From assembly GCA_965204775.1 (NCBI GenBank), contig CBDBFH010000022.1, forward strand, positions 19,015 to 83,014: a DNA stretch of 64,000 nucleotides, in the 5' to 3' direction. The stretch comes from Alphaproteobacteria bacterium. GTDB taxonomy: Bacteria; Pseudomonadota; Alphaproteobacteria; JAPOUT01; G958296285. Below the pieces are notes generated by a model. It ran no database searches and had not been told where the DNA came from. It worked only from the letters and a program-made list of their open reading frames with translations. Shown here piece after piece: positions 1 to 15,664 of the stretch (its first letter is position 1; each line of letters starts with the position of its first letter). Position numbers and translations under genes: made by a program.

Positions 1-286
1 CTTCCTTCAGGCGACGTTTGGCGCGCTGCTTTTCGACTGCGGGCGACACCCCGTCCGCGATCGCCTTCTTCACCTCGATAAGCCGCTCGCGGGCTTGGGC
101 CAGCGTCAGTCCGGCCCGACCGTAGCGACCGAGCGTCAAGGTCTCTCGACGGCCGTTGAAGCGATAGTCGTAGCGGAATGAGATTGCGCCGCCCGTCGAG
201 ACATAGACGTACATGCCGTCCCTGTCGGTAATCTTGTAAGCCCTTGCTTTCGGACGCAAATTCTTCAGTGCGGTGTCGGTAAGCAC
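1..286 (-). CDS. P4-like tyrosine integrase, N-terminal arm-DNA-binding domain (partial, runs off the window)
   Basis: Not in the ORF track. Manual translation from GTG at 286 gives MLTDTALKNLRPKARAYKITDRDGMYVYVSTGGAISFRYDYRFNGRRETLTLGRYGRAGLTLAQARERL..., the typical P4 Int N-terminus. It lies directly downstream of guaA. Confidence 0.9.
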   Translation of the reverse strand, partial: MLTDTALKNLRPKARAYKITDRDGMYVYVSTGGAISFRYDYRFNGRRETLTLGRYGRAGLTLAQARERLIEVKKAIADGVSPAVEKQRAKRRLKE

Positions 287-588
287 GGTATAATCGCCTC
301 TGTCCGTCGATCCTCGAATTCGGTCACGCCGAGACGGTTTTTTCCTAGTTATCTCAACGACTTGCTGGGAATAAATACCGTCAGGGCGGGGCCCGATGTC
401 ACAACGGTATGAGCCCGAGTCCGCCAGATCAATGCAGCCGCGTACCGTCGCGCAGTCCGACAAAACGGAAAAAGACCCTCCGAATGGCTCCGAAGGGTCT
501 CGACAGAATTCACAATGTTGTCAGGCCTTTAGAGGCTGTTTCGGAAGCGATACCGAATGCTACCGAAGGGTCGGGACTATTCCCACTC
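1..588 (-). mobile_element. Left end (attL region) of an integrative element inserted at the guaA 3' end
   Basis: P4-type integrase 290 bp downstream of guaA; GAGTGGGA at 588-581 within the last guaA codons; repeated TACCG-containing motifs between 375 and 572. Confidence 0.7.
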
Positions 589-2139
589 GATCGTGCCCGG
601 CGGCTTCGACGTCACGTCGTACACCACGCGATTGACGCCGCGGACTTCGTTGATGATGCGGGTGGCGGTTTTGGCCAGGACGTCCCAGGGGAATTGGTAG
701 AAGTCGGCGGTCATGCCGTCGGTGGAGGTGACGGCGCGGAGGGCCAGGACTTTTTCGTAGGTGCGGGCGTCGCCCATGACGCCGACGGTCTTGACCGGCA
801 GAAGCACGGCGAAGGCCTGCCAGATGTCGTCGTAGAGGCCGGCCTTGCGGATTTCGTCGAGATAGATGGCGTCGGCCTGTTGCAGGGTCTCGACGGCGTC
901 GGGGGTGATCTCGCCGGGGATGCGGATGGCCAGGCCGGGTCCCGGGAACGGGTGGCGGCCGACGAAGGCGTCGCTCAGGCCCAGTTCGCGGCCCAGAGCG
1001 CGGACCTCGTCCTTGAACAGTTCGCGCAAGGGCTCGACCAGTTTCAGCTTCATATAGTCGGGCAGGCCGCCGACATTGTGGTGGCTCTTGATGACGTGGG
1101 CCTTGCCGCTGGACGAGGAGACGCTCTCGATCACGTCGGGATAGAGGGTGCCCTGGGCCAGGAATTCGGCGCCCTCGATCTTGGCGGACTCGCGGTCGAA
1201 CACCTCGATGAACAGGCGGCCGATGGTCTTGCGCTTGGTCTCCGGGTCCGAAATCCCGGCCAGTTCGCCCAGGAATTCCTTCGATGCATCAACATGCACC
1301 AGAGGGATGTTGTAGTGCTCTCGGAACAGGGTCGTGACCTGGGTCGCCTCGTCCTTGCGCAGCAGGCCGGTGTCGACGAACACGCAGGTCAGTTGGTCGC
1401 CGATGGCCTCGTGGATCAGCACGGCGGCGACCGAGGAGTCCACGCCGCCCGACAGGCCGCAGATCACCTTGGCGTCGCCGACCTGTTCGCGGATCTGGGC
1501 GATCTTTTCGTCGCGATAGGCGGCCATGGTCCAGTCGCCCTTCAAGCCCGCGATGCCGTGGGTGAAGTTCTTCAGCATCTGGTGGCCGCGCGGGGTGTGC
1601 ATCACCTCGGGGTGGAACTGCACGCCATAGAAGCGGCGGGTCTCGTCGGCGATCGCCGCATAGGGCGATCCGTCAGACGAGGCGACGACGTCGAAACCTT
1701 CCGGGATGGCGACGATCTTGTCGCCATGGCTCATCCAGACGGTTTCTTCCTCGCCGACCGGGGCCAGGCCGGCCAGCAGGGGCGAGGTTTTTTCGACCGT
1801 GATCTCGGCGCGGCCGAACTCGCGGGTGTGGCCGCCTTCGACCTTGCCGCCCAGCTGTTCGCACATCGTCATCTCGCCGTAGCAGATGCCCAGCACCGGC
1901 ACGCCCGCCTCGAACACGCCATGCGGCGCGCGGGGACTGCCTTCCTCGTGAACGCTTTCCGGCCCGCCCGACAGGATGATGGCCGCCGGGTTCATGGCGG
2001 CCAGGGCGGCCTCGGCCTTCTGGAACGGGTGGATCTCGCAATAGACGCTGGCCTCGCGCAGACGGCGCGCGATCAGTTGCGTCACCTGGCTGCCGAAATC
2101 GACGATGAGGACCTTTTGGTGGTCTTGCGGCGTGGTCAT
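577..2139 (-). CDS. guaA: GMP synthase (glutamine-hydrolysing), copy 1
   Basis: [30 protein letters not shown] and C-terminal KPPGTIEWE motifs. Confidence 0.98.
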
Positions 2140-4548: not shown

Positions 4549-5344
<796 letters not shown>

Positions 5345-5370: not shown

Positions 5371-5595
5371 TCAGCAACAATCGGTATCGCCATCCGTCCG
5401 GTCAGGCAAGACCCCGGCGGCGGCCTCCTTCAGGGGCAGGCGCACCTCAAAGGGCAGGCCGTTTTGCAGAACCGACTGGCGGTAAAAAACCGCTATCGCC
5501 TGCGAGGCGCTCAAGCCCAGCGACTTGAAAACACTCTCGGCGGCCTGTTTGAGTTCCGGCTCGATCCGGGTGCAGATCATCGCGCTCTTGGTCAT
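5371..5595 (-). CDS. RelB/DinJ family antitoxin (orphan)
   Basis: 74 aa MTKSAMICTRIEPELKQAAESVFKSLGLSASQAIAVFYRQSVLQNGLPFEVRLP, a ribbon-helix-helix pattern with GLPF motif; this is the C-terminal part of ORF 5371..6285; GGAG-type RBS upstream. Confidence 0.85.
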   Translation of the reverse strand: MTKSAMICTRIEPELKQAAESVFKSLGLSASQAIAVFYRQSVLQNGLPFEVRLPLKEAAAGVLPDRTDGDTDCC

Positions 5596-5629
5596 GGGGG
5601 AGACTCCTCTGTATGTCCTTTGTATATAT

Positions 5630-5642
5630 AATGTAATACATT
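5630..5642. promoter_or_regulatory. Palindromic operator candidate AATGTA-A-TACATT
   Basis: Perfect 6-bp inverted repeat in the AT-rich divergent intergenic region upstream of the antitoxin; resembles RHH antitoxin operators. Confidence 0.5.
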
Positions 5643-5697
5643 TTGTCAGAGAAGTCAAGTGGTAAAATGACTTTTTCAGATCAGGGGAAGAAGCCGA

Positions 5698-6570
5698 ATG
5701 CCGGAAAAAATCCATCACGAAGCGGTCAAGGCAGGCAACAGCGCCGTGGTCACCGGAGGCGCGAGCGGCATTGGGCTGGCGGCGGCGCAGCGGTTTGCGC
5801 AGGCGGGGATGAATGTCCTGATTGCCGACCGGGATCAGGAGGGTCTGGAGGCGGGGCTGCAATCCCTGCGCCGGGCGGCGTCCGGCTCCGGCGAAGTCCA
5901 TTCCATGCTGTGCGATGTTTCTCAGGAGGATCAGGTTCGGGGTCTGGCGGATTTCGCCTTCGGCAAATTTTCGGGCGTCTCGGTCCTGATGAACAATGCC
6001 GGGGCCGCAATCATGGATGCGGGCAAGCCGTGGGAAAATGTTGCGCGCTGGCGCAAGCAGCTGGAGGTCAATCTGTGGGGCGTCATTTACGGCGTGCAGG
6101 CTTTCGTGCCGGCGATGATCGAGCAGGGCGGGGCGGGCGCCGTCATCAACACGGGTTCGAAGCAGGGGATTACGCGTCCGCCGGGCAATGCGGCCTATAA
6201 TCTTTCCAAGGCCGGGGTGATCGCCTTCACGGAATCTTTGGCCCATGAGCTGCGCCAGCTGAAAGACTGCCGCCTGTCGGCGCATCTGCTGGTTCCCGGC
6301 CTGACCTATACGGGCATGATCGCACGCTTTCTGCCGAAGAAGCCGCCTGCGGCCTGGACATCGGAGCAGGTCGCCGATTTTATGCTGGAGCGTCTTGGGC
6401 GGGGGGACTTCTATATTTTATGCCCGGACAATGACGTAAGCCGGGCCGTGGACGAGCGCCGGATCCGGTGGCATGCCGACGACATGATCCAGAACCGCCC
6501 GGCGCTTTCCCGGTGGCATGAAGACTACGCGGAGGAATTCAAGCGGTTCATGCAATCTGCGAACCGGTGA
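5698..6570 (+). CDS. Short-chain dehydrogenase/reductase
   Basis: TGGASGIG, NNAG, YNLSK. Confidence 0.93.
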   Translation: MPEKIHHEAVKAGNSAVVTGGASGIGLAAAQRFAQAGMNVLIADRDQEGLEAGLQSLRRAASGSGEVHSMLCDVSQEDQVRGLADFAFGKFSGVSVLMNNAGAAIMDAGKPWENVARWRKQLEVNLWGVIYGVQAFVPAMIEQGGAGAVINTGSKQGITRPPGNAAYNLSKAGVIAFTESLAHELRQLKDCRLSAHLLVPGLTYTGMIARFLPKKPPAAWTSEQVADFMLERLGRGDFYILCPDNDVSRAVDERRIRWHADDMIQNRPALSRWHEDYAEEFKRFMQSANR

Positions 6571-6599
6571 GCGTCTGCTCCGCTTCGTGGTCAAGCAGC

Positions 6600-6628
6600 T
6601 TGCCGGGCAAGTATGATTATTGTATGAT
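6600..6628 (+). promoter_or_regulatory. Sigma70-like promoter for the MaoC pair
   Basis: TTGCCG(6600-6605)-N17-TATGAT(6623-6628); GTATGAT is repeated with 11-bp period. Confidence 0.45.
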
Positions 6629-6675
6629 CTATGACAGACCGCTAAAATAGAAACGGCTAAACAGGGGGGACGATC

Positions 6676-7230
6676 ATGGGCCAGCAGGTCAAAGTCCAGG
6701 ATTTCATCCAGACGAAAAAGCAGAAGGAATTTGAGAACGATTTCTTCAAAAATGCCGCCAAATTCGAAAGATGGGAAGACATTGACGATGAAGGCTGGGT
6801 AGACGGTAAAATTGTCTTTGAGGTTGAGCTCGAAGACATTTTGAGTTTTTCACGAGGCGTCCTGGACGATAACCCGCTATTCAGCGATCCGGAGGCGGCC
6901 AAGGACGGACCCTTCGGGGGGATCATCGCACATCCGCTGTTTATGACGCCGATTGTTTTTTGGTCAACCGGCAAGGATGGTCCGGGCAGCTGGATCAAGA
7001 CTCCCGGCGCGATCAACCCGGGCCAGGAGATTGAATACGGCGTCCCTATCAGGCCGGGCGACAAGATTCGCAACCGCTCGCGCTTCTATGACAAGTACAT
7101 CAAGCGCGGCAAACGCTACCTGTTGTTTGAGACTCACTATCTGAATCAGAAGGACGAAATCGTCTACAAAGTGCGCGGCGGTTTAATTTTACCGGTCTCG
7201 ACAGGCAGTGAAGCGCATCAATTTTTGTGA
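6676..7230 (+). CDS. MaoC-like (hot-dog) dehydratase subunit, N-terminal/FAS1-type
   Basis: DDNPLFSDPEAAKDGPFGGIIAHP, GQEIEYGVPIRPGD, NQKDE. Confidence 0.8.
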   Translation: MGQQVKVQDFIQTKKQKEFENDFFKNAAKFERWEDIDDEGWVDGKIVFEVELEDILSFSRGVLDDNPLFSDPEAAKDGPFGGIIAHPLFMTPIVFWSTGKDGPGSWIKTPGAINPGQEIEYGVPIRPGDKIRNRSRFYDKYIKRGKRYLLFETHYLNQKDEIVYKVRGGLILPVSTGSEAHQFL

Positions 7231-7289
7231 GTTCATGCGATCATCAGCCGACATTCGCAGACCGCCAAACCGGGAGGATTTTTGGGAAA

Positions 7290-7742
7290 ATGACAGAGTT
7301 GCACTTTGATGAAGTCGAATTAGGCTTCGAGTTGCCGCCAATCGTCAAAAAGATCGATCAGGAATTGATTACGCGCAATGCGGTGGCGTCGCTTGACTTC
7401 AATCCGATTCATACCGACCCTGAATGGGCGAAGAAAGTCAACCTGCTGGGGCGGGGAACGACGATTGTGCACGGCTTGTGCACATTTTCCTTTATGGCGT
7501 CGGTCGTGACCGACTGGTGTTATGCGCGCGGCGGTTATATCAAGGCAATGGAGAGCAAGTTTATTTCGCCGGTGCGTCCGGGAGACACGTTGACCTGCAA
7601 GGGGGTTGTGACAGAGCTTCACCCGCGAGTGCGGACGGTTCCGTTTGTGGTGGTCAAACTGACGGCGGAAAAGCAGGACGGGGAGGTCGCGGCGATTGTC
7701 CATGCGAAGGTTTCGCTCCCGGTCAAGCCGTCAAGCGGTTGA
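7290..7742 (+). CDS. MaoC family (R)-specific enoyl-CoA hydratase/dehydratase
   Basis: Hydratase-2 motif SLDFNPIHTD, IVHG, FISPVRPGDTL; ATG at 7290 after GGAGG. Confidence 0.88.
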   Translation: MTELHFDEVELGFELPPIVKKIDQELITRNAVASLDFNPIHTDPEWAKKVNLLGRGTTIVHGLCTFSFMASVVTDWCYARGGYIKAMESKFISPVRPGDTLTCKGVVTELHPRVRTVPFVVVKLTAEKQDGEVAAIVHAKVSLPVKPSSG

Positions 7743-7777
7743 GAGTGTCATTGTCATCACCGGCAAGGATCAGCCTT

Positions 7778-8605
7778 TCACTTTGATCTTGCGTTTAAGG
7801 GTGGCGAAGCGGTTAATGTGGGGTGTGCTCCGTCTAATGTAAGCTGGTGGCTTTTCTGCCGACCGCCGCTTTTCTTTTGCTTCTGCAATAGCGCTACCCT
7901 CTCCTCTATTTTTTGGAATACGGAACCCATATTCGCTCGCCCTGTAATGCGGCTTTTCATTAACCTTGTTGCTCCTTTTGCCAAGAGGGTGCGGTTGCCC
8001 ATTGTCGTTTCGCCTTCCTCCCCGTAAACGAGCGCATATAAGGGGACATCCAGCTCGAGGCTGGTTTTTCCGGCACTGATCGTGCCTCCCTTCTCCCGCG
8101 CCTCTATGAGGATCATGGCGTCCGACAGACGAATGATGAGTTCGTTGCGCTGCATGGCCCTTCCGGCGCGCCAGATCGCCTCGTTGGGAAATTGGCTCAA
8201 CACAAGCACTCGATCCCAGTCCCAATGCTCCTTTATCTCGGCCCGGATGCGGAAGTGATCCAACCCTTGGGGCAAGACAGCAATAGTTCCCCCTCCCTCC
8301 TTCAGGGCCGTCTGATGGACGAGACTGTCGATCCCTCTCGCATAACCGGAAACAATCGTCAGGCCTTTCTCCACGGCCTGCCGGGCGCAGTCAACCGCAG
8401 CGCCAAGCCCTTTTTCCGAAGCATCGCGCGAACCACAGAAGCCGAGAGTTTTTTCCTTGAGAAGATCCTGGTTCCCGATATAGTGAATTCGAGATAGGGC
8501 TTTGCTTCTTGTCCCGCTGCGCAATTTAGAGGGGTAAAGAGGGTCAGCCCGTTCCAGCACTCCCCCGTCTTGCCATGCCTTGCAGATTTTTTCAGCTTGG
8601 CGCAT
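7778..8605 (-). CDS. DprA/Smf (SLOG Rossmann fold) protein, ShosA-like
   Basis: GFCGSRDAS, IVSGYARGIDS, TIAVLPQG, QRNELI, IEAREKGGT; no obvious N-terminal SAM domain. Confidence 0.9.
   Translation of the reverse strand: MRQAEKICKAWQDGGVLERADPLYPSKLRSGTRSKALSRIHYIGNQDLLKEKTLGFCGSRDASEKGLGAAVDCARQAVEKGLTIVSGYARGIDSLVHQTALKEGGGTIAVLPQGLDHFRIRAEIKEHWDWDRVLVLSQFPNEAIWRAGRAMQRNELIIRLSDAMILIEAREKGGTISAGKTSLELDVPLYALVYGEEGETTMGNRTLLAKGATRLMKSRITGRANMGSVFQKIEERVALLQKQKKSGGRQKSHQLTLDGAHPTLTASPPLNARSK
7791..7814. repeat. Direct repeat copy A (displaced 3' end of the MNT-HEPN gene)
   Basis: gcgtttaagggtggcgaagcggtt, 23/24 identical to 9565-9588; the minus strand reads NRFATLKRKIKVKG*. Confidence 0.85.
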
Positions 8606-9536
8606 GATCCCCGCCCGCGCTCTCCTGCGCGCTAAAATTATCCCGGTCTCTTCTTGTTTTCACCAAGCATAGCCCGTAAACGAGCCTGACGCCCTTTTGC
8701 TGCAGCTTCCATGCCACATAATTGGCCGTCGCTCCAGATTGATACTTATCATCCAGCAATATCACGGATTTTCCCTTCAGGGAATCACTGTTTATGATCA
8801 AATTTTTCTCATTCAAAACCCTCAATCTCTCCTGGAATGGTGTATTTTTCATTGATGGTCCCGATTTTGTGAAGGATAGGGCCGGGCAGCATGGTTTTTC
8901 AATTTGGTCTGAGACGATTTGCGCAACCTGCAAGGGTAAATTATAATCCTTACCCGGTGTGGTGGGGGCGGGGATAACCAGATCAGCTTCCTGATAAAAA
9001 GGCAGTCCCTTGATCCTGCGCGCCGCCAGTCCGGCCAATCTTTCAACTGCGCCAGCATCTTCTTCATATTTAGCCCTGTATTCCAATTTACCTATTGGGG
9101 TGCGTTCTGACTTGGTTCCCGCAAAATTCTCCCCCAAGGCAATCGACAATGAGAGCAGGTCACGCAAGAAAACGAGCGTGCCGCACTCTTCCATCCATCT
9201 CTTGATTAGATCATATTCTTTTTTCTTTTCCGGCTCTATTCCGTGCCATATGCTTAATCCCGATCCTCTTGGGGGGAAAAGTTGCAAACCTGTTTGCCGC
9301 TCGAAAATATACCTCACCGTATTCGGAAAGGGGAGACTGAAAGCCCATTGAAATTTTCCTCCGTAATCCCGCAAAGCATTCTTGTGCGTTGTGGCGAAGC
9401 ATATGCGATGCGCCGTTCCACCGGCGTTTGATTCGCGCTCTCTCATGAAATCTTCCAACCTTTCAAGGGTTATGGAAAGATAGGGTGGGGGCGTAGTCTC
9501 GCCCATCCGCCAGCTAAGAATATCGTTCAGGCTCAT
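8592..9536 (-). CDS. ComF-like phosphoribosyltransferase with uncharacterised N-terminal domain, ShosT-like toxin candidate
   Basis: PRPP loop VILLDDKYQSGAT, RTPIGKLEYRAKY, VYGLCLVKT; 14-bp overlap with the DprA gene; low GC. Confidence 0.8.
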   Translation of the reverse strand: MSLNDILSWRMGETTPPPYLSITLERLEDFMRERESNAGGTAHRICFATTHKNALRDYGGKFQWAFSLPFPNTVRYIFERQTGLQLFPPRGSGLSIWHGIEPEKKKEYDLIKRWMEECGTLVFLRDLLSLSIALGENFAGTKSERTPIGKLEYRAKYEEDAGAVERLAGLAARRIKGLPFYQEADLVIPAPTTPGKDYNLPLQVAQIVSDQIEKPCCPALSFTKSGPSMKNTPFQERLRVLNEKNLIINSDSLKGKSVILLDDKYQSGATANYVAWKLQQKGVRLVYGLCLVKTRRDRDNFSAQESAGGDHAPS

Positions 9537-9549
9537 TTTTCGCTCTTTT

Positions 9550-10482
9550 TTACCTTTTTATCCGGCGTTTGAGGGTGGCGAAGCGGTTTTTGCATTTGCG
9601 CTCGATAAGTTTGTGGAGTTCGGCGACCTGCGCGCCCAGCCAGTCGAGCTCCTTTTCGGTAATCACGTAATGCGGGGAATAGCGCGCCTTGACATAGGCA
9701 TCCTTGAGCAGCTGGAACAGCCGCTGGTCGCGGCGGTAATAGCGCGGCCAGACCGGGACCAGACGCCGGTTCACACGCTCCGCGTCCGAACGCAATTTCT
9801 CAATATCATGATGCCGGGGCGCATAATGGGTCAGCGTCAGAAGAAAAGCCCGATAAGCATGTTCAACCGCCTGATGGAGCTGGAAGGCTGATTCTTTTAG
9901 CCGCCCCTTGTCTAGAACATAGCGTGACGTATCTAGAAATCCTCTCGCACCCGGAAACCAGATTTCATAATTGTTCTGCGATTCCTCAAGGGCGGCCTGG
10001 GGGGTGAGCGGTTCGGGGTCGGCGAGTTTGCGGGTGTGCGGGGCCTCGTAGAGCAAAATCCCCTCTTTGGCGACGTCAACAAAGAAATAGGCTCCGCGCC
10101 TCAAACGCTGATTGACATAGCGGTTGGAGTGCACGATCAGTTTGACCTGCGGGCGGGTGGGGCCTCTTGAGGGAAAGCGGAGAAAGCGGTCATTGGCCCT
10201 CGTCCAGTAATCAAAGTCGGTCAGCCGCCGGTCATTGACGGTCACCAGAAGATCGTAGTCGCTGACATAGCCGGAATGGGGGCCGCTATAGGGATCTATA
10301 ACGTAATCATTCCGCGCGAATGAGCCGTAGAGGATAATCCGCTGAATACGTCCATTTTTGACGAATTTGGCCTTTGAGCGCCGGAGCGACTTGTCAAACT
10401 CCTCAAAGAGGATTTCGACGGCCCGCTCCAGTTCTTTCTGGCACCGGGCGGGGAGAAAGCCGATGTCGGTCTTCATTTCCAT
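9550..10482 (-). CDS. Nucleotidyltransferase (MNT)-HEPN fusion protein
   Basis: ILYGSFAR..SDYDLLV (pol-beta GS/DxD motif), then HEPN-type AFQLHQAVE..HDIEKL..AYVKARY. Confidence 0.88.
   Translation of the reverse strand: MEMKTDIGFLPARCQKELERAVEILFEEFDKSLRRSKAKFVKNGRIQRIILYGSFARNDYVIDPYSGPHSGYVSDYDLLVTVNDRRLTDFDYWTRANDRFLRFPSRGPTRPQVKLIVHSNRYVNQRLRRGAYFFVDVAKEGILLYEAPHTRKLADPEPLTPQAALEESQNNYEIWFPGARGFLDTSRYVLDKGRLKESAFQLHQAVEHAYRAFLLTLTHYAPRHHDIEKLRSDAERVNRRLVPVWPRYYRRDQRLFQLLKDAYVKARYSPHYVITEKELDWLGAQVAELHKLIERKCKNRFATLKRRIKR
9565..9588. repeat. Direct repeat copy B (within the MNT-HEPN gene 3' end)
   Basis: gcgtttgagggtggcgaagcggtt; encodes NRFATLKR. Confidence 0.85.
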
Positions 10483-10544
10483 AGGCGATCATAATGCCTG
10501 ATTCGCCCCGCCTGTAAAGGCGGAGTCGGGAGTCTGGTTGATGG

Positions 10545-11150
10545 GGATTCCCGCCCCCGCTTTCGCGGGGGTGACGTGCTTTCGCGGGAATGACGAGAGA
10601 GAAAGGCGGGAATGACGAGAGAGAAAGGCGGGAATGACGAGAGAGAAGGGCGGGAATGACAGGAGGGGCGGGGGAAAGTCCAGTTCTTTTCTCCGTCACT
10701 CCCGCGCAAGCGGGAGTCCATTTCGCGGATGTGGCTGGATTCCCGCCCCCGCCTTCGCGGGGGTGACGTTCTTTCGCGGGAATGACGAGAGAGGCGGGGA
10801 TGACGAGCTGGATTCCCGCTTTCGCGGGAATGACGAGAGAGAAGGGCGGGAATGACGAGAGAGAAGGGCGGGAATGACGAGAGAGAAAGGCGGGAATGAC
10901 AGGAGGGGTGGGGGAAAGTCCAGTTCTTTTCTCCGTCACTCCCGCGCAAGCGGGAGTCCATTTCGCGGGTGTGTCTGGATTCCCGCCCCCGCCCCCGCCC
11001 CCGCTTTCGCGGGGGTGACGTTCTTTCGCGGGGGTGACGTTCTTTCGCGGGGGTGACGAGAGAGGCGGGGATGACGAGCTGGATTCCCGCTTTCGCGGGA
11101 ATGACGAGAGAGAAGGGCGGGAATGACGAGAGAGGCGGGGGAAAGTCCCG
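10545..11150. repeat. Hierarchical dRS3/REP-like palindromic repeat array (BIME-like)
   Basis: ATTCCC-GCTTTCGC-GGGAAT at 10812-10831 and 11083-11102; opposite-orientation ACTCCC-GCGCAAGC-GGGAGT at 10698-10717 and 10938-10957; 22-bp, 19-bp and 6-bp tandem subunits; 240-bp higher-order period. Confidence 0.92.
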
Positions 11151-11233
11151 CCCGCCACCTCTCCGGGCGCGGGGCACGTCAATTCTTGATGCCTCAATTA
11201 TTCGCGCTCCCCCTTCCGGCAGGCACAGGTTTT

Positions 11234-11301
11234 GCGGGAAAGTCCGGCGACCGCCGCTCGGCGGCTGGCGGGAAAGTCCCGCCACCCCCGCTCGGCGGCT
11301 G
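11234..11301. repeat. 34-bp tandem duplication overlapping the tRNA 3' end
   Basis: gcgggaaagtccggcgaccgccgctcggcggctg followed by gcgggaaagtcccgccacccccgctcggcggctg. Confidence 0.8.
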
Positions 11302-11369
11302 GGGGAGGTGGATTCGAACCACCATTGACGAATTCAGAGTCCGCTGTCCTACCGTTAGACGATCCCCCA
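11299..11369 (-). tRNA. tRNA-Gln (anticodon CTG), CCA not encoded
   Basis: TGGGGGATCGTCTAACGGTAGGACAGCGGA-CTCTGAA-TTCGTCAATGGTGGTTCGAATCCACCTCCCCCAG; acceptor, D, anticodon and T arms all pair. Confidence 0.95.
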
Positions 11370-12159: not shown

Positions 12160-13632
12160 ATGATCCGCGAAGCCCTCACTTTCGATGACGTCCTCCTCTG
12201 CCCCGCAGAGTCCAACGTCCTGCCCGCGCAAACCCGGACCAACACCGAAATCGCACCCGGAATCACCCTCAATATCCCCCTCGTCTCCGCCGCCATGGAT
12301 ACCGTCACCGAAGCGGCGCTGGCCATCGCCATGGCCCAGGCAGGTGGCCTCGGCGTCCTCCACCGCAATATGACCCCAGAAGCCCAGGCCCTCCAGGTCA
12401 AGGCCGTCAAAAAATTCGAGTCCGGCATCGTCGTCGACCCCGTCACCATCAGCCCCGGCGCAACCCTCGCGCAGGCCCTCAACCTCATGCGAACACATAA
12501 AATCTCCGGAATCCCCGTCGTCGAAAGCAACGGCAAACTCAAGGGAATCCTCACCAATCGCGACGTCCGCTTCGCCGATAACCCCGAAGAACCCGTCCGC
12601 AGCCTCATGACCAAAGAAAAACTCGTGACCGTACATGAAGGCGTCAACCTCGCCGAAGCCAAGCGCCTCCTCCACGAACACCGAATCGAAAAACTCATCG
12701 TCGTGGACGACGCCTATCGCTGCACCGGACTCCTGACCGTCAAGGATATCGAAAAGTCCACCCTCCACCCCCGCGCCTGCAAAGACGAACAGGGCAGGCT
12801 GCGAGTCGCCGCCGCAACCGCCGTCGGCGGCGAAGGCCTGCGACGCGCCGACGCCCTGATCGAGGCCGGCGCAGATCTCATCGTCGTCGATACCGCGCAT
12901 GGACACTCGGCCCGCGTCATCGAAACCGTCCGCCAAATCCGCCGCAACCACAATAACGCCCGAATCATGGCCGGAAACGTCGCAACCGCCGACGGCGTCA
13001 AAGCCCTCGCCGACGCCGGCGCCGACGCCGTGAAAATCGGAATCGGACCCGGCTCCATCTGCACCACACGCATGGTCGCCGGCGTCGGCGTCCCACAACT
13101 CACCGCCGTCATGGACGCCGCCGAAGCCGCACAAAACGCCTCCATCCGAATCATCGCCGACGGCGGAATCAAATACTCCGGAGACCTCGCCAAAGCCCTC
13201 GCCGCAGGCGCAGACGCCGCCATGATCGGAACCCTCCTCGCCGGAACCGAAGAAACACCCGGCGAAGTCTTCCTCTATCAGGGCCGCAGCTACAAAGCCT
13301 ATCGCGGCATGGGATCCATCGGCGCCATGGCCGACGGCTCCGCCGACCGATACGCTCAGGAAGAAATCGGAAATATGATGAAACTCGTCCCCGAAGGCGT
13401 CGAAGGCCGCGTCCCCTTCAAAGGACCCGCCGCCGCCGTCATCCATCAACTCGTCGGCGGCCTGCGCGCCGCCATGGGTTACACCGGCGCGCAAAACCTC
13501 GGCCAATTCGCAAAGCGCGCACGCTTCACACGAATCTCCGCCGCCGCCCTGCGCGAAAGCCACGTCCACAGCGTCACCATCACGCGCGAATCGCCCAATT
13601 ACCCAGGCAGCGCATGGATGGGGGAGGGATAA
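12160..13632 (+). CDS. guaB: IMP dehydrogenase (complete)
   Basis: [19 protein letters not shown] pair, [22 protein letters not shown]. Confidence 0.98.
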
Positions 13633-14105: not shown

Positions 14106-15664
14106 CGCAACCGCCCGACGCCGAGCGAATCCTCCTGATCGATTTCGGCAGTCAGTTCACCCAGCTGATCGCCCGCCGGGTCCGCGAAAGCGGCGTCTAT
14201 TGTGAAATCGCTCCCTGCCATGCGCTGCGCGGACATCTCGACCCCAAACCCGCCGCCGTCATTTTGTCCGGCGGCCCGGCCAGCGCCGCCGCCGGGCAGG
14301 CCGGACCACCCGCCCCGCCCGAACTCTTTCAGCTGGGCGTCCCGATTCTGGGAATCTGCTACGGCCAGCAGGCCATGTGCGCCGCTCTGGGCGGGCGCGC
14401 CGCACCCGGCGAAGCACGCGAATTCGGACGCGCCCGGATCACCATCGCCGCCGCCTCCCCTCTCTTCGACAGCCTCGCCCCGCCCGGCGGAACCGAAGAC
14501 GTCTGGATGAGCCACGCCGACCGGGTTGTCGAACTCCCCAAAGGCTTCGTCCCCCTCGCCCATTCCGGCCACGCCCCCTATGCCGCCATCGCCGACGAGC
14601 GCCGCAAACTCTACGGCGTCCAGTTCCACCCCGAAGTCGTCCACACCCCCGGCGGCGCAAAACTGATCGAAAACTTCGCGCGCCGCATCGCCAACTGCGC
14701 CGGGCGCTGGACTATGCAGGCCTTCCTCGACCAGGCCGCCGAAAATATCCGCGCCCGCGCCCCCAAAGGCCGAATCCTCTGCGCCCTGTCCGGCGGCGTC
14801 GACTCCGCCGCAACCGCGCTCCTCCTCCACCGCGCCGTTGGCGAACGACTCGTCTGCATCTTCGTCGACAACGGCCTCCTGCGCGAAAACGAGGCCGAAG
14901 ACGTCACCCGGCTCTTTCGCGAACACTTCAATATCCCACTGATCGCCGTCGACGCCGCCGACCGCTTCCTCGCCGCGCTCGGCAAAACCTCCGGCCCCGA
15001 AGAAAAACGCAAAATCATCGGAAAACTCTTCATCAAAATCTTCGAGGAAGAAGCCAAAAAAATCGGCAACGCGCAATTCCTCGCCCAGGGCACCCTCTAT
15101 CCCGACGTCATCGAAAGCGTCTCGGCGCATGGCGGCCCCAGCGCAACCATCAAAAGCCACCACAATGTCGGCGGCCTGCCGAAGCGCATGAAACTCAAAC
15201 TGATCGAGCCGGTCCGCGACCTCTTCAAGGACGAAGTGCGCGCGCTGGGCCGAACCCTGGGCCTGCCGGAAACCTTCCTGCGCCGCCACCCCTTCCCCGG
15301 ACCCGGCCTCGCCGTCCGAATCCCCGGACCCGTCACCGCAGAAAAATGCCGCATCCTGCGCCGCGCCGACGCCATCTATATCGACGAAATCCGCAAACAC
15401 AAACTCTATGACCACATCTGGCAGGCTTTCGCCGTCCTCCTGCCCGTCAAAAGCGTCGGCGTCATGGGCGACGCACGCTCCTACGAATATGTCTGCGCCC
15501 TGCGCGCCGTCACCTCCGTCGACGGCATGACCGCCGACGCCTTCCCCTTCCCACCCAACTTCCTCGAACAGACCGCAACCCGCATCATCAATGAAACCAA
15601 AGGCATCAACCGCGTCGTCTATGACGTCACCTCCAAACCGCCCGGAACCATAGAATGGGAGTGA
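14102..15664 (+). CDS. guaA: GMP synthase, copy 2
   Basis: Same motif set as copy 1; GTG at 14102 overlaps the upstream stop. Confidence 0.98.

Follow-up and report, generated by a model that had tools for sequence, protein, structure and literature searches.

We analysed a 64,000-nt stretch of DNA (the window) from an Alphaproteobacteria bacterium (assembly GCA_965204775.1, contig CBDBFH010000022.1, positions 19,015-83,014), whose genome comprises 1.71 Mb in 29 contigs with 65.7% G+C. The window contains two adjacent genes for a phosphoribosyltransferase (PRTase) and a DprA-like protein, which, judged from their sequences, very probably represent toxin and antitoxin of the ShosTA/PsyrTA class and are predicted to act in abortive-infection defence against phages. 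It is furthermore fairly likely that this pair entered the 3' end of a gene for an MNT-HEPN fusion protein with a 33-bp duplication of the target; that class and insertion mode are both right is slightly less probable, but still the outcome we favour. The argument relies on the following features:

7770-7814, minus strand: orphan HEPN tail reading NRFATLKRKIKVKG*, taken as the original 3' end of the MNT-HEPN gene
7778-8605, minus strand: antitoxin candidate, DprA-like protein of 275 aa, Rossmann domain only; 14 nt of overlap between its start and the PRTase stop
7782-7814: copy L of the direct repeat, 33 nt, identical to copy R at 29/33; orphan, with another frame encoding the last residues of the DprA-like open reading frame (ORF)
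7815-7834, minus strand: filler of 20 nt separating copy L from the truncated DprA-like gene
7815-9555, minus strand: putatively inserted cassette of 1741 bp with 51.6% G+C; read in gene orientation, it comprises a 19-nt leader, the PRTase gene, the DprA-like gene and the 20-nt filler
8592-9536, minus strand: toxin candidate, PRTase of 314 aa; a conserved alpha/beta domain occupies residues ~1-140, a ComF-like PRTase domain ~145-300
9550-10482, minus strand: MNT-HEPN fusion gene, 310 aa (Pfam HEPN 5.9e-16 and a weak Polbeta nucleotidyltransferase match), the putative insertion target
9556-9588: direct-repeat copy R, 33 nt, within the intact MNT-HEPN frame (codons N-R-F-A-T-L-K-R-R-I-K)

Cassette junctions and flanking repeats in relatives

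A first-pass annotation of this DNA had described a 24-bp direct repeat around the two genes, and sequence comparison agrees: positions 7791-7814 and 9565-9588 are identical at 23/24 nt and lie 1774 bp apart. The repeat even grows to 33 nt (7782-7814 / 9556-9588, 29/33, local search E 3.3e-7), including an identical stretch of 17 nt. Within the window, a degenerate 24-nt pattern with up to three mismatches found these two sites only, two matches occurred in 0/100 shuffles, and the repeat is not a chance match. Throughout the genome the 24-mer occurs just three times even if up to five substitutions are allowed, the third occurrence being the C-terminus of an MNT-HEPN paralogue. On the minus strand, copy R reads ...NRFATLKRRIKR (also written ...KNRFATLKRRIKR) and constitutes the end of the 310-aa MNT-HEPN ORF. 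Copy L reads ...NRFATLKRKIKVKG* and is an orphan with its stop codon at 7770-7772, located exactly where the HEPN gene would end were the DNA between the copies taken out. All five MNT-HEPN paralogues that we examined, from this genome and from two relatives in the family, have NRxxTLKR plus a short Lys/Arg-rich tail as their C-terminus. The orphan copy is therefore a real end of a HEPN gene. The homology to a 93% identical MNT-HEPN paralogue on another contig ends at 9556.

At the upstream junction, copy R is followed in gene orientation by AGG TAA and the rest of the 19-nt leader up to the ATG of the PRTase. Because copy R runs into these first bases of the cassette, the MNT-HEPN stop codon now appears to come from inserted DNA, and the frame ends ...KRRIKR, the orphan copy ...KRKIKVKG*. 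At the downstream junction, the DprA-like ORF reads QLTLD (residues 254-258), followed by 17 residues from the filler and copy L. As the frame runs past QLTLD through both elements, the gene's own last codon and stop seem to have been lost. The earlier observation that this ORF traverses the distal copy to reach its stop is thus correct, with the addition that it does so in another frame. Equally, no recombinase-like gene was found within or beside the cassette in our survey of ORFs and Pfam domains, as had been claimed; the nearest lies ~7.3 kb away. A low-G+C example given earlier (21/60 at 8761-8820) was reproduced by counting, and the G+C content of the cassette compares with 65.5% in the window. 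However, the MNT-HEPN gene (55.8%) and the neighbouring MaoC genes (51-55%) are low in G+C as well, so that composition does not single out the cassette.

For comparison, related loci were collected by a scan of one genome per species (185,579 species genomes), which yielded 215 loci, and the best 80 were kept. None of these 80 has an MNT-HEPN homologue within 6 kb, and therefore the cassette is foreign to the HEPN gene, as the first-pass annotation had supposed. Flanking repeats were sought at E<=1e-6 in 58 related cassettes with full 1500-nt flanks, and 107 mock cassettes set 1.6 kb to either side in those loci served as a control. Direct repeats flank 6/58 related cassettes versus 1/107 mock positions (Fisher one-sided p 0.008, with loci counted as independent; the six come from different lineages). 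These repeats measure 39, 71+50, 134, 141, 177 and 234 nt, share no sequence and are pieces of neighbouring genes.

The geometry of the window recurs in one of the six, locus L051, in which the last 39 nt of the upstream gene (agmatine-deiminase-like, as we take it from its sequence) are found again right after the DprA-like stop. In three relatives (G068, G064, G073) both flanks are contiguous and overlap by 33-37 nt in the junction alignment, and hence the empty site has the 39-nt repeat in single copy. For L051, duplication of a non-paralogous target gene is proven. In L028, the duplication spans 134 nt with 97% identity (5737-5870 and 7760-7892); the cassette neighbours are presumably infB and rbfA, as read from their sequences, and the opening eight codons of the downstream rbfA-like ORF also begin the PRTase ORF. 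The 234-nt repeat of L081 is a duplicated 5' end of a gene that has a Tat-type signal. No empty sites were found for L028 and L081, whose relatives are too distant or also carry the cassette. Besides, the flanks of L028 contain multi-copy repeat elements of that genome, and a regular array adjoins the cassette of L081 (L081:8159-10307), which is CRISPR-like by its repeated translated motif.

We propose that the 1.74-kb cassette (7815-9555) entered the last 11 codons of the MNT-HEPN gene and duplicated 33 bp of the target, in an insertion with long target duplication that would not involve a recombinase of its own. The upstream copy would have remained part of the HEPN frame, whose stop now lies in the first bases of the cassette (...KRRIKR), and the downstream copy would have been left as the orphan (...KRKIKVKG*). 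The junction would have cost the DprA-like gene its last codon and stop, and the gene would now read the orphan copy in another frame. Target duplication appears to be the way in which such cassettes move without a recombinase of their own.

The PRTase and its DprA-like partner

The PRTase gene and the DprA-like gene form a conserved module: the latter is located directly downstream on the same strand in 79/80 related loci, and the remaining locus ends 234 nt past the PRTase match. According to the record titles, hosts of these loci belong to the Pseudomonadota, Bacteroidota, Acidobacteriota, Chloroflexota, Nitrospirota, Myxococcota and others. When all 1.84 billion representatives were scanned with the PRTase by HMMER, 1192 proteins came out at E<=0.001, and 72 cluster representatives reached E<=1e-30. 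Most relatives have a length of ~280 aa and, as they align from about residue 40 to 300, include the front domain. In four relatives, front domain and PRTase lie at the end of long proteins, each followed by a separate DprA-like gene (L016:4084-6777, L023:3913-6798, L046:4333-6843 and protein P0065). Three of these long fused forms have a DprA-like domain at the start plus ~450 unassigned residues, and one has FRG and TPR repeats. This would fit an exchange of sensor-type parts on a constant effector, as is usual in defence systems. A search of a phage collection with the PRTase gave no match, a plasmid collection contributed four partial matches to the PRTase domain, and IMG/VR a single locus (L095) with a DprA-like gene downstream.

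The assignment of the pair to the ShosTA/PsyrTA class, which the first-pass annotation had already made, is supported by Pfam and by hidden Markov model profiles of PADLOC. For the DprA-like protein, the matches are strong (Pfam PF02481 2.2e-38; PADLOC ShosA 3.7e-34; PsyrA PDLC03927 3.9e-48 with 162.6 bits over profile positions 93-313 of 398). Its Pfam DprA domain begins at residue 16 and the alignment to the ShosA chain 8zva_A at chain residue 102; with only 15 residues preceding the Rossmann domain, the protein has no SAM domain. Related DprA-like proteins are 224-311 aa long. The PRTase has no Pfam family above cut-off (Pribosyltran E 0.012) but matches PsyrT (2e-9, 34.3 bits, profile positions 537-686 of 689) and ShosT (4.7e-7). 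In a family alignment of 108 members, 108/108 match the PsyrT profile and 86/108 the ShosT profile. The loop of the PRTase for phosphoribosyl pyrophosphate (PRPP) reads VILLDDKYQSGAT, and P191, D262, D263, Y265 and G268 are invariant in all aligned members.

An AlphaFold2 model of the whole PRTase has a predicted local distance difference test score (pLDDT) of 92.2 and a predicted template modelling score of 0.89. We compared it with one chain per PDB cluster and found the best match of the PRTase domain in the ComF protein of H. pylori (7p0h_A, Z 15.1, root-mean-square deviation 2.7, 161 residues, model 120-295), followed by PurF (Z 10.9) and many other PRTases. The ShosT chain 8zvb_A aligns with Z 9.8 over 154 residues; as the alignment spans only model residues 117-298 and chain residues 165-366, the match is limited to the PRTase domain. 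A PDB sequence search with the family profile retrieved generic PRTases only, at E>=0.004, and no ShosT at E<=1. A prediction of the complex of PRTase and DprA-like protein, run without controls, gave no answer (score 0.00).

The front domain is probably a regulatory part. Folded alone (145 residues, 9102-9536), it reaches a pLDDT of 85.7 with the order beta-beta-alpha-beta-alpha-beta-beta, and it contains two cysteines. Among solved structures, VIA gave a best Z of 3.6 with no chain at Z>=5 and Foldseek a best E of 0.45, where a missing match does not prove a different fold; in the ESM Atlas, the best scores (0.79-0.81) belong to clusters without names and are uninformative. Together with the restricted ShosT alignment, the VIA and Foldseek searches agree with the earlier remark that the front of the PRTase has no recognisable HAD-hydrolase motif.

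Regarding function, the accessible parts of the ShosTA papers describe a PRPP-binding ShosT that requires the Asp-Asp pair to be toxic and upsets purine metabolism, and a ShosA that attaches to single-stranded DNA (ssDNA) as well as to RecA and neutralises ShosT without binding it, with a C-terminal tail that makes ShosA unstable (PMC11961720, PMC12961424). ShosT is released by a shut-off of host transcription through T7 Gp0.7 or by phage ssDNA (PMC11961720, PMC12961424). By analogy with ShosTA, the PRTase of the window would engage PRPP with its conserved Asp-Asp loop and thereby poison the metabolism of nucleotides or DNA. The DprA-like protein would act on ssDNA and RecA and offset the toxin for as long as it is being made, and phage infection would tip the balance between the two.

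The C-terminus of the antitoxin candidates carries a conserved motif. Exactly at their end, 24/70 related DprA-like proteins (loci L014-L086) have Qxx[LMVF][LFI], e.g. QLSLF, QLGLF, QPSLF or QLALL. The strict form Q[LPMVI]x[LM][LFI] terminates 14/70 of them and accounts for 13 of 17,054 internal five-residue words. By its sequence, the motif is similar to QLxLF, the consensus for beta-clamp binding that occurs at the C-termini of proteins (PMC4549789, in the part available). We regard this as a lead on where DprA-like proteins act rather than as a finding; the available parts of the two ShosTA papers contain no mention of the beta clamp (PMC11961720, PMC12961424).

Competing explanations and the surrounding islet

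Several observations weigh against our interpretation of class and insertion. The PADLOC matches of the toxin are modest (34 and 28 bits) and confined to the PRTase domain, whose fold is closer to ComF than to ShosT. The conserved C-terminal motif of the antitoxin is disrupted in the window copy; hence the system may be altered or decaying, with a possible change in stability or targeting of the DprA-like protein. Flanking repeats are lacking in 52/58 related cassettes. The two copies in the window differ at 4/33 positions and the paralogue on contig C28 differs from each of them by 2, so that copy L could derive from another paralogue without any duplication; the homology to this paralogue stops at 9556, the same base as the repeat, which an origin from a paralogue remnant also predicts. 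Finally, the empty-site allele envisaged by the first-pass annotation (HEPN ending ...KRKIKVKG) was found for the window locus neither in 40 related genomes and four family genomes, none of which belongs to the same genus, nor in a metagenome scan and four sequencing runs (X1-X4). The scan of metagenome contigs with the HEPN protein retrieved no relative; contigs of runs X2-X4 show the filled arrangement and no joint skipping the cassette, and run X1 (share 0.19) has coverage only at 6854-7370 and 9599-10278 and at some repeats, so that it says nothing on the part in between.

The most serious competitor, though unlikely in our view, is that a second MNT-HEPN gene once existed on the far side of the cassette, or arrived there through recombination between paralogues, that copy L is its rest, and that a deletion took the gene body together with the end of the DprA-like gene, without any target duplication. 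The genome indeed has three MNT-HEPN paralogues with a common C-terminal DNA motif; the C28 paralogue is 31/33 to each copy, with the copies 29/33 to each other, repeat and paralogue homology stop at the same base, and a deletion would also remove the last codon and stop of the DprA-like gene. However, such an origin needs two events, a tandem arrangement and a deletion sparing exactly the tail, instead of a single insertion. No other orphan tail exists in the genome, given the three occurrences of the 24-mer, and the same geometry of intact gene end, cassette and orphan copy represents a proven duplication of a non-paralogous gene in L051. Because L051 demonstrates that the route is real in this cassette family and a remnant requires two events, we prefer the insertion in one event. 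Two further comparisons do not discriminate: beyond the repeat, copy L and copy R each match the C28 paralogue at ~7/12 bases (counted by eye from the alignment), leaving no extra likeness of copy L, and a 9/11 similarity of the DNA ahead of both copies, again read by eye, is compatible with chance.

The first-pass annotation had pictured an insertion as at an attachment (att) site, which would call for a recombinase encoded elsewhere that acts on an att-like core in the HEPN 3' end. The 17-nt identical stretch in both copies, the replacement of a gene 3' end as by tRNA-targeting islands and a tyrosine-integrase N-terminus at 2-463 agree with this idea. Yet this integrase adjoins the 3' end of a guaA copy ~7.3 kb off and points out of the window, and a cassette of two ORFs and a 19-nt leader leaves no room for its own attachment site. 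The flanking repeats of relatives share neither sequence nor length (39-234 nt), and the empty sites of L051 reveal a plain target duplication. We therefore see no support for the att-site mechanism and consider site-specific integration improbable.

Least probable of all is an extra competence pair, i.e. a second ComF-DprA set for DNA uptake with no role as toxin-antitoxin or in defence. A grouping of the PRTase with competence ComF, which the first-pass annotation had named as an outcome speaking against its reading, holds for the fold, ComF being the best structural match, and the DprA-like protein matches DprA models too. It does not hold at the family level: the scores lie far under the NCBIfam cut-offs (comF TIGR00201 26.9 vs 233.55 bits; dprA TIGR00732 111.1 vs 191.15 bits), and canonical copies exist elsewhere in the genome, a dprA on contig C8 (233 bits vs 132 for the cassette copy) and a comF on contig C28 (81 bits vs 28 for the cassette PRTase). 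ComF has a four-cysteine zinc finger, the front domain only two cysteines. All aligned family members match the defence profile PsyrT, relatives fuse the PRTase unit to sensor-type TPR/FRG domains, and the cassette combines a low G+C content with a place in a variable islet and a sporadic occurrence among species genomes.

A bolder extension of the insertion hypothesis is that PRTase/DprA-like pairs are minimal self-mobilising defence cassettes, in which the DprA-like protein drives insertion of the cassette via short-homology recombination at replication forks. The variable target duplications would then be the product of this insertion and the front domain a new sensor or regulatory fold. 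DprA-like proteins load RecA, ShosA reportedly promotes recombination between 6-8 bp repeats, and the idea also fits because DprA-like proteins often end in the motif similar to beta-clamp-binding sites. Even so, we give both parts of this extension little credence.

The insertion site is part of a variable islet of ~5.9 kb (about 5381-11296), for which two further features are relevant:

10491-10518, minus strand: promoter-like site just upstream of the MNT-HEPN gene
11297-11369, minus strand: tRNA-Gln, the right edge of the islet

Since no promoter was found in the 13-nt gap between HEPN and PRTase, the cassette is probably transcribed by read-through from the HEPN promoter, as far as promoter positions can tell. 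Only 67 bp separate tRNA-Gln from the thioesterase gene (window 5071-5305) in relative G001. Two genes for MaoC-type dehydratases (6623-7770) are 88-89% identical to copies that G002 and G003 carry at other, unrelated places. Identity is lower for core genes including guaB, at 65-73% (guaB itself 69-73%), and this contrast suggests a recent horizontal exchange of the MaoC block. Its homology to G002 and G003 ends at 7770, the last base of the stop codon of the orphan tail (7770-7772). By sequence, the islet is a mosaic. It is bracketed by an inverted segmental duplication formed by two inverted guaA copies (577-2139, minus strand, and 14129-15660, plus strand; arms ~78% complementary) and by a C-terminal IMPDH (guaB) fragment (4549-4947, minus strand) that faces the full guaB (12160-13632). 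The nearest recombinase, the mentioned N-terminus of a tyrosine integrase (2-463, minus strand, Arm DNA-binding domain 1.5e-20), runs out of the window and probably marks the edge of an island integrated at guaA.

The fused nucleotidyltransferase-HEPN protein of ~310 aa exists in three copies in this 1.7-Mb genome (window and contigs C27 and C28) and also occurs in G002 and G003. Upstream of the window copy, a GC-rich repeat block at 10500-11300 consists of families of ~46 nt and 115-181 nt with short palindromes. The same units precede the 93% identical paralogue and are present on other contigs (C24, C28, C29) and in family relatives. A gene for a RelB/DinJ-type antitoxin (5371-5598, minus strand, PF04221 1.8e-09) has no evident toxin partner beside it.

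Comparison with known systems

According to the parts of the literature available, pairs of DprA and PRTase protect against phages (PMC9122126), as does PsyrTA, with a DprA-like antitoxin and a toxin containing a PRTase domain (bioRxiv 10.1101/2022.05.11.491447). ShosTA of E. coli APEC O1, also the DprA + PRTase system of P2-like prophage hotspots, likewise consists of adjacent genes. The Asp-Asp pair of the PRPP-binding loop is kept (D262/D263 here, D331/D332 in ShosT), and the exchange D331A/D332A abolishes the toxicity of ShosT (PMC11961720, in part). A further likeness is the non-conserved or disordered C-terminal tail of the antitoxin (PMC11961720, PMC12961424, in part). According to the same sources, ShosT is a protein of 424 aa that begins with a Rossmann-fold pyrophosphatase domain (residues 1-164), and ShosA begins with a SAM domain (residues 1-94) (PMC11961720, PMC12961424). 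The window toxin, in contrast, has 314 aa with a seemingly different front domain of ~140 aa that matches no solved fold. Its PRTase fold scores higher against ComF (Z 15.1) than against ShosT 8zvb_A (Z 9.8), and the antitoxin has only 15 residues before the Rossmann domain. These differences agree with the variant toxin that the first-pass annotation suspected. In PADLOC, both proteins of the window match PsyrTA / RqlHI best (PsyrA 162.6 bits, PsyrT 34.3 bits). However, the 314-aa toxin matches the PsyrT profile of 689 positions only at 537-686, and so the long N-terminal part of PsyrT is absent.

ComF(C) and DprA resemble the pair in the folds of both catalytic domains. Differences are the scores of the window proteins, which fall under the family cut-offs, the strict adjacency of the two genes, the presence of separate canonical genes in the genome and a PRTase without a zinc-finger-type N-terminus. 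The ShosTA/PsyrTA class would thus be widened by a compact branch with a toxin whose confidently folded front domain matches no solved fold and an antitoxin without SAM domain, found in several phyla, in hundreds of 50%-identity clusters and in 215 of 185,579 species genomes.

For the mode of insertion, the closest counterpart is the insertion with long target duplication of restriction-modification units that lack a mobility gene. Their repeats vary in length and frequently overlap gene 3' ends, repeats of 46 bp among them (Furuta, Abe and Kobayashi 2010, PMC2853133). As given in the accessible part of that work, it is recognised by a whole gene unit of <20 kb without mobility gene and a flanking direct repeat of >30 bp (PMC2853133). 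In the literature library that was searched, the listings contained no report of long target duplication for PRTase/DprA-like or other toxin-antitoxin cassettes; the mode has been described for restriction-modification systems, and an uninterrupted site was found for L051, not for the window. Nevertheless, the insert of the window, with its 1741 bp, two ORFs, no mobility gene and a 33-nt repeat at 29/33, corresponds to this description. It would be a concrete case of a recombinase-less defence cassette landing inside another gene, backed by a relative with proven empty sites, and would extend a mobility mode so far described for restriction-modification genes to PRTase/DprA-like cassettes.

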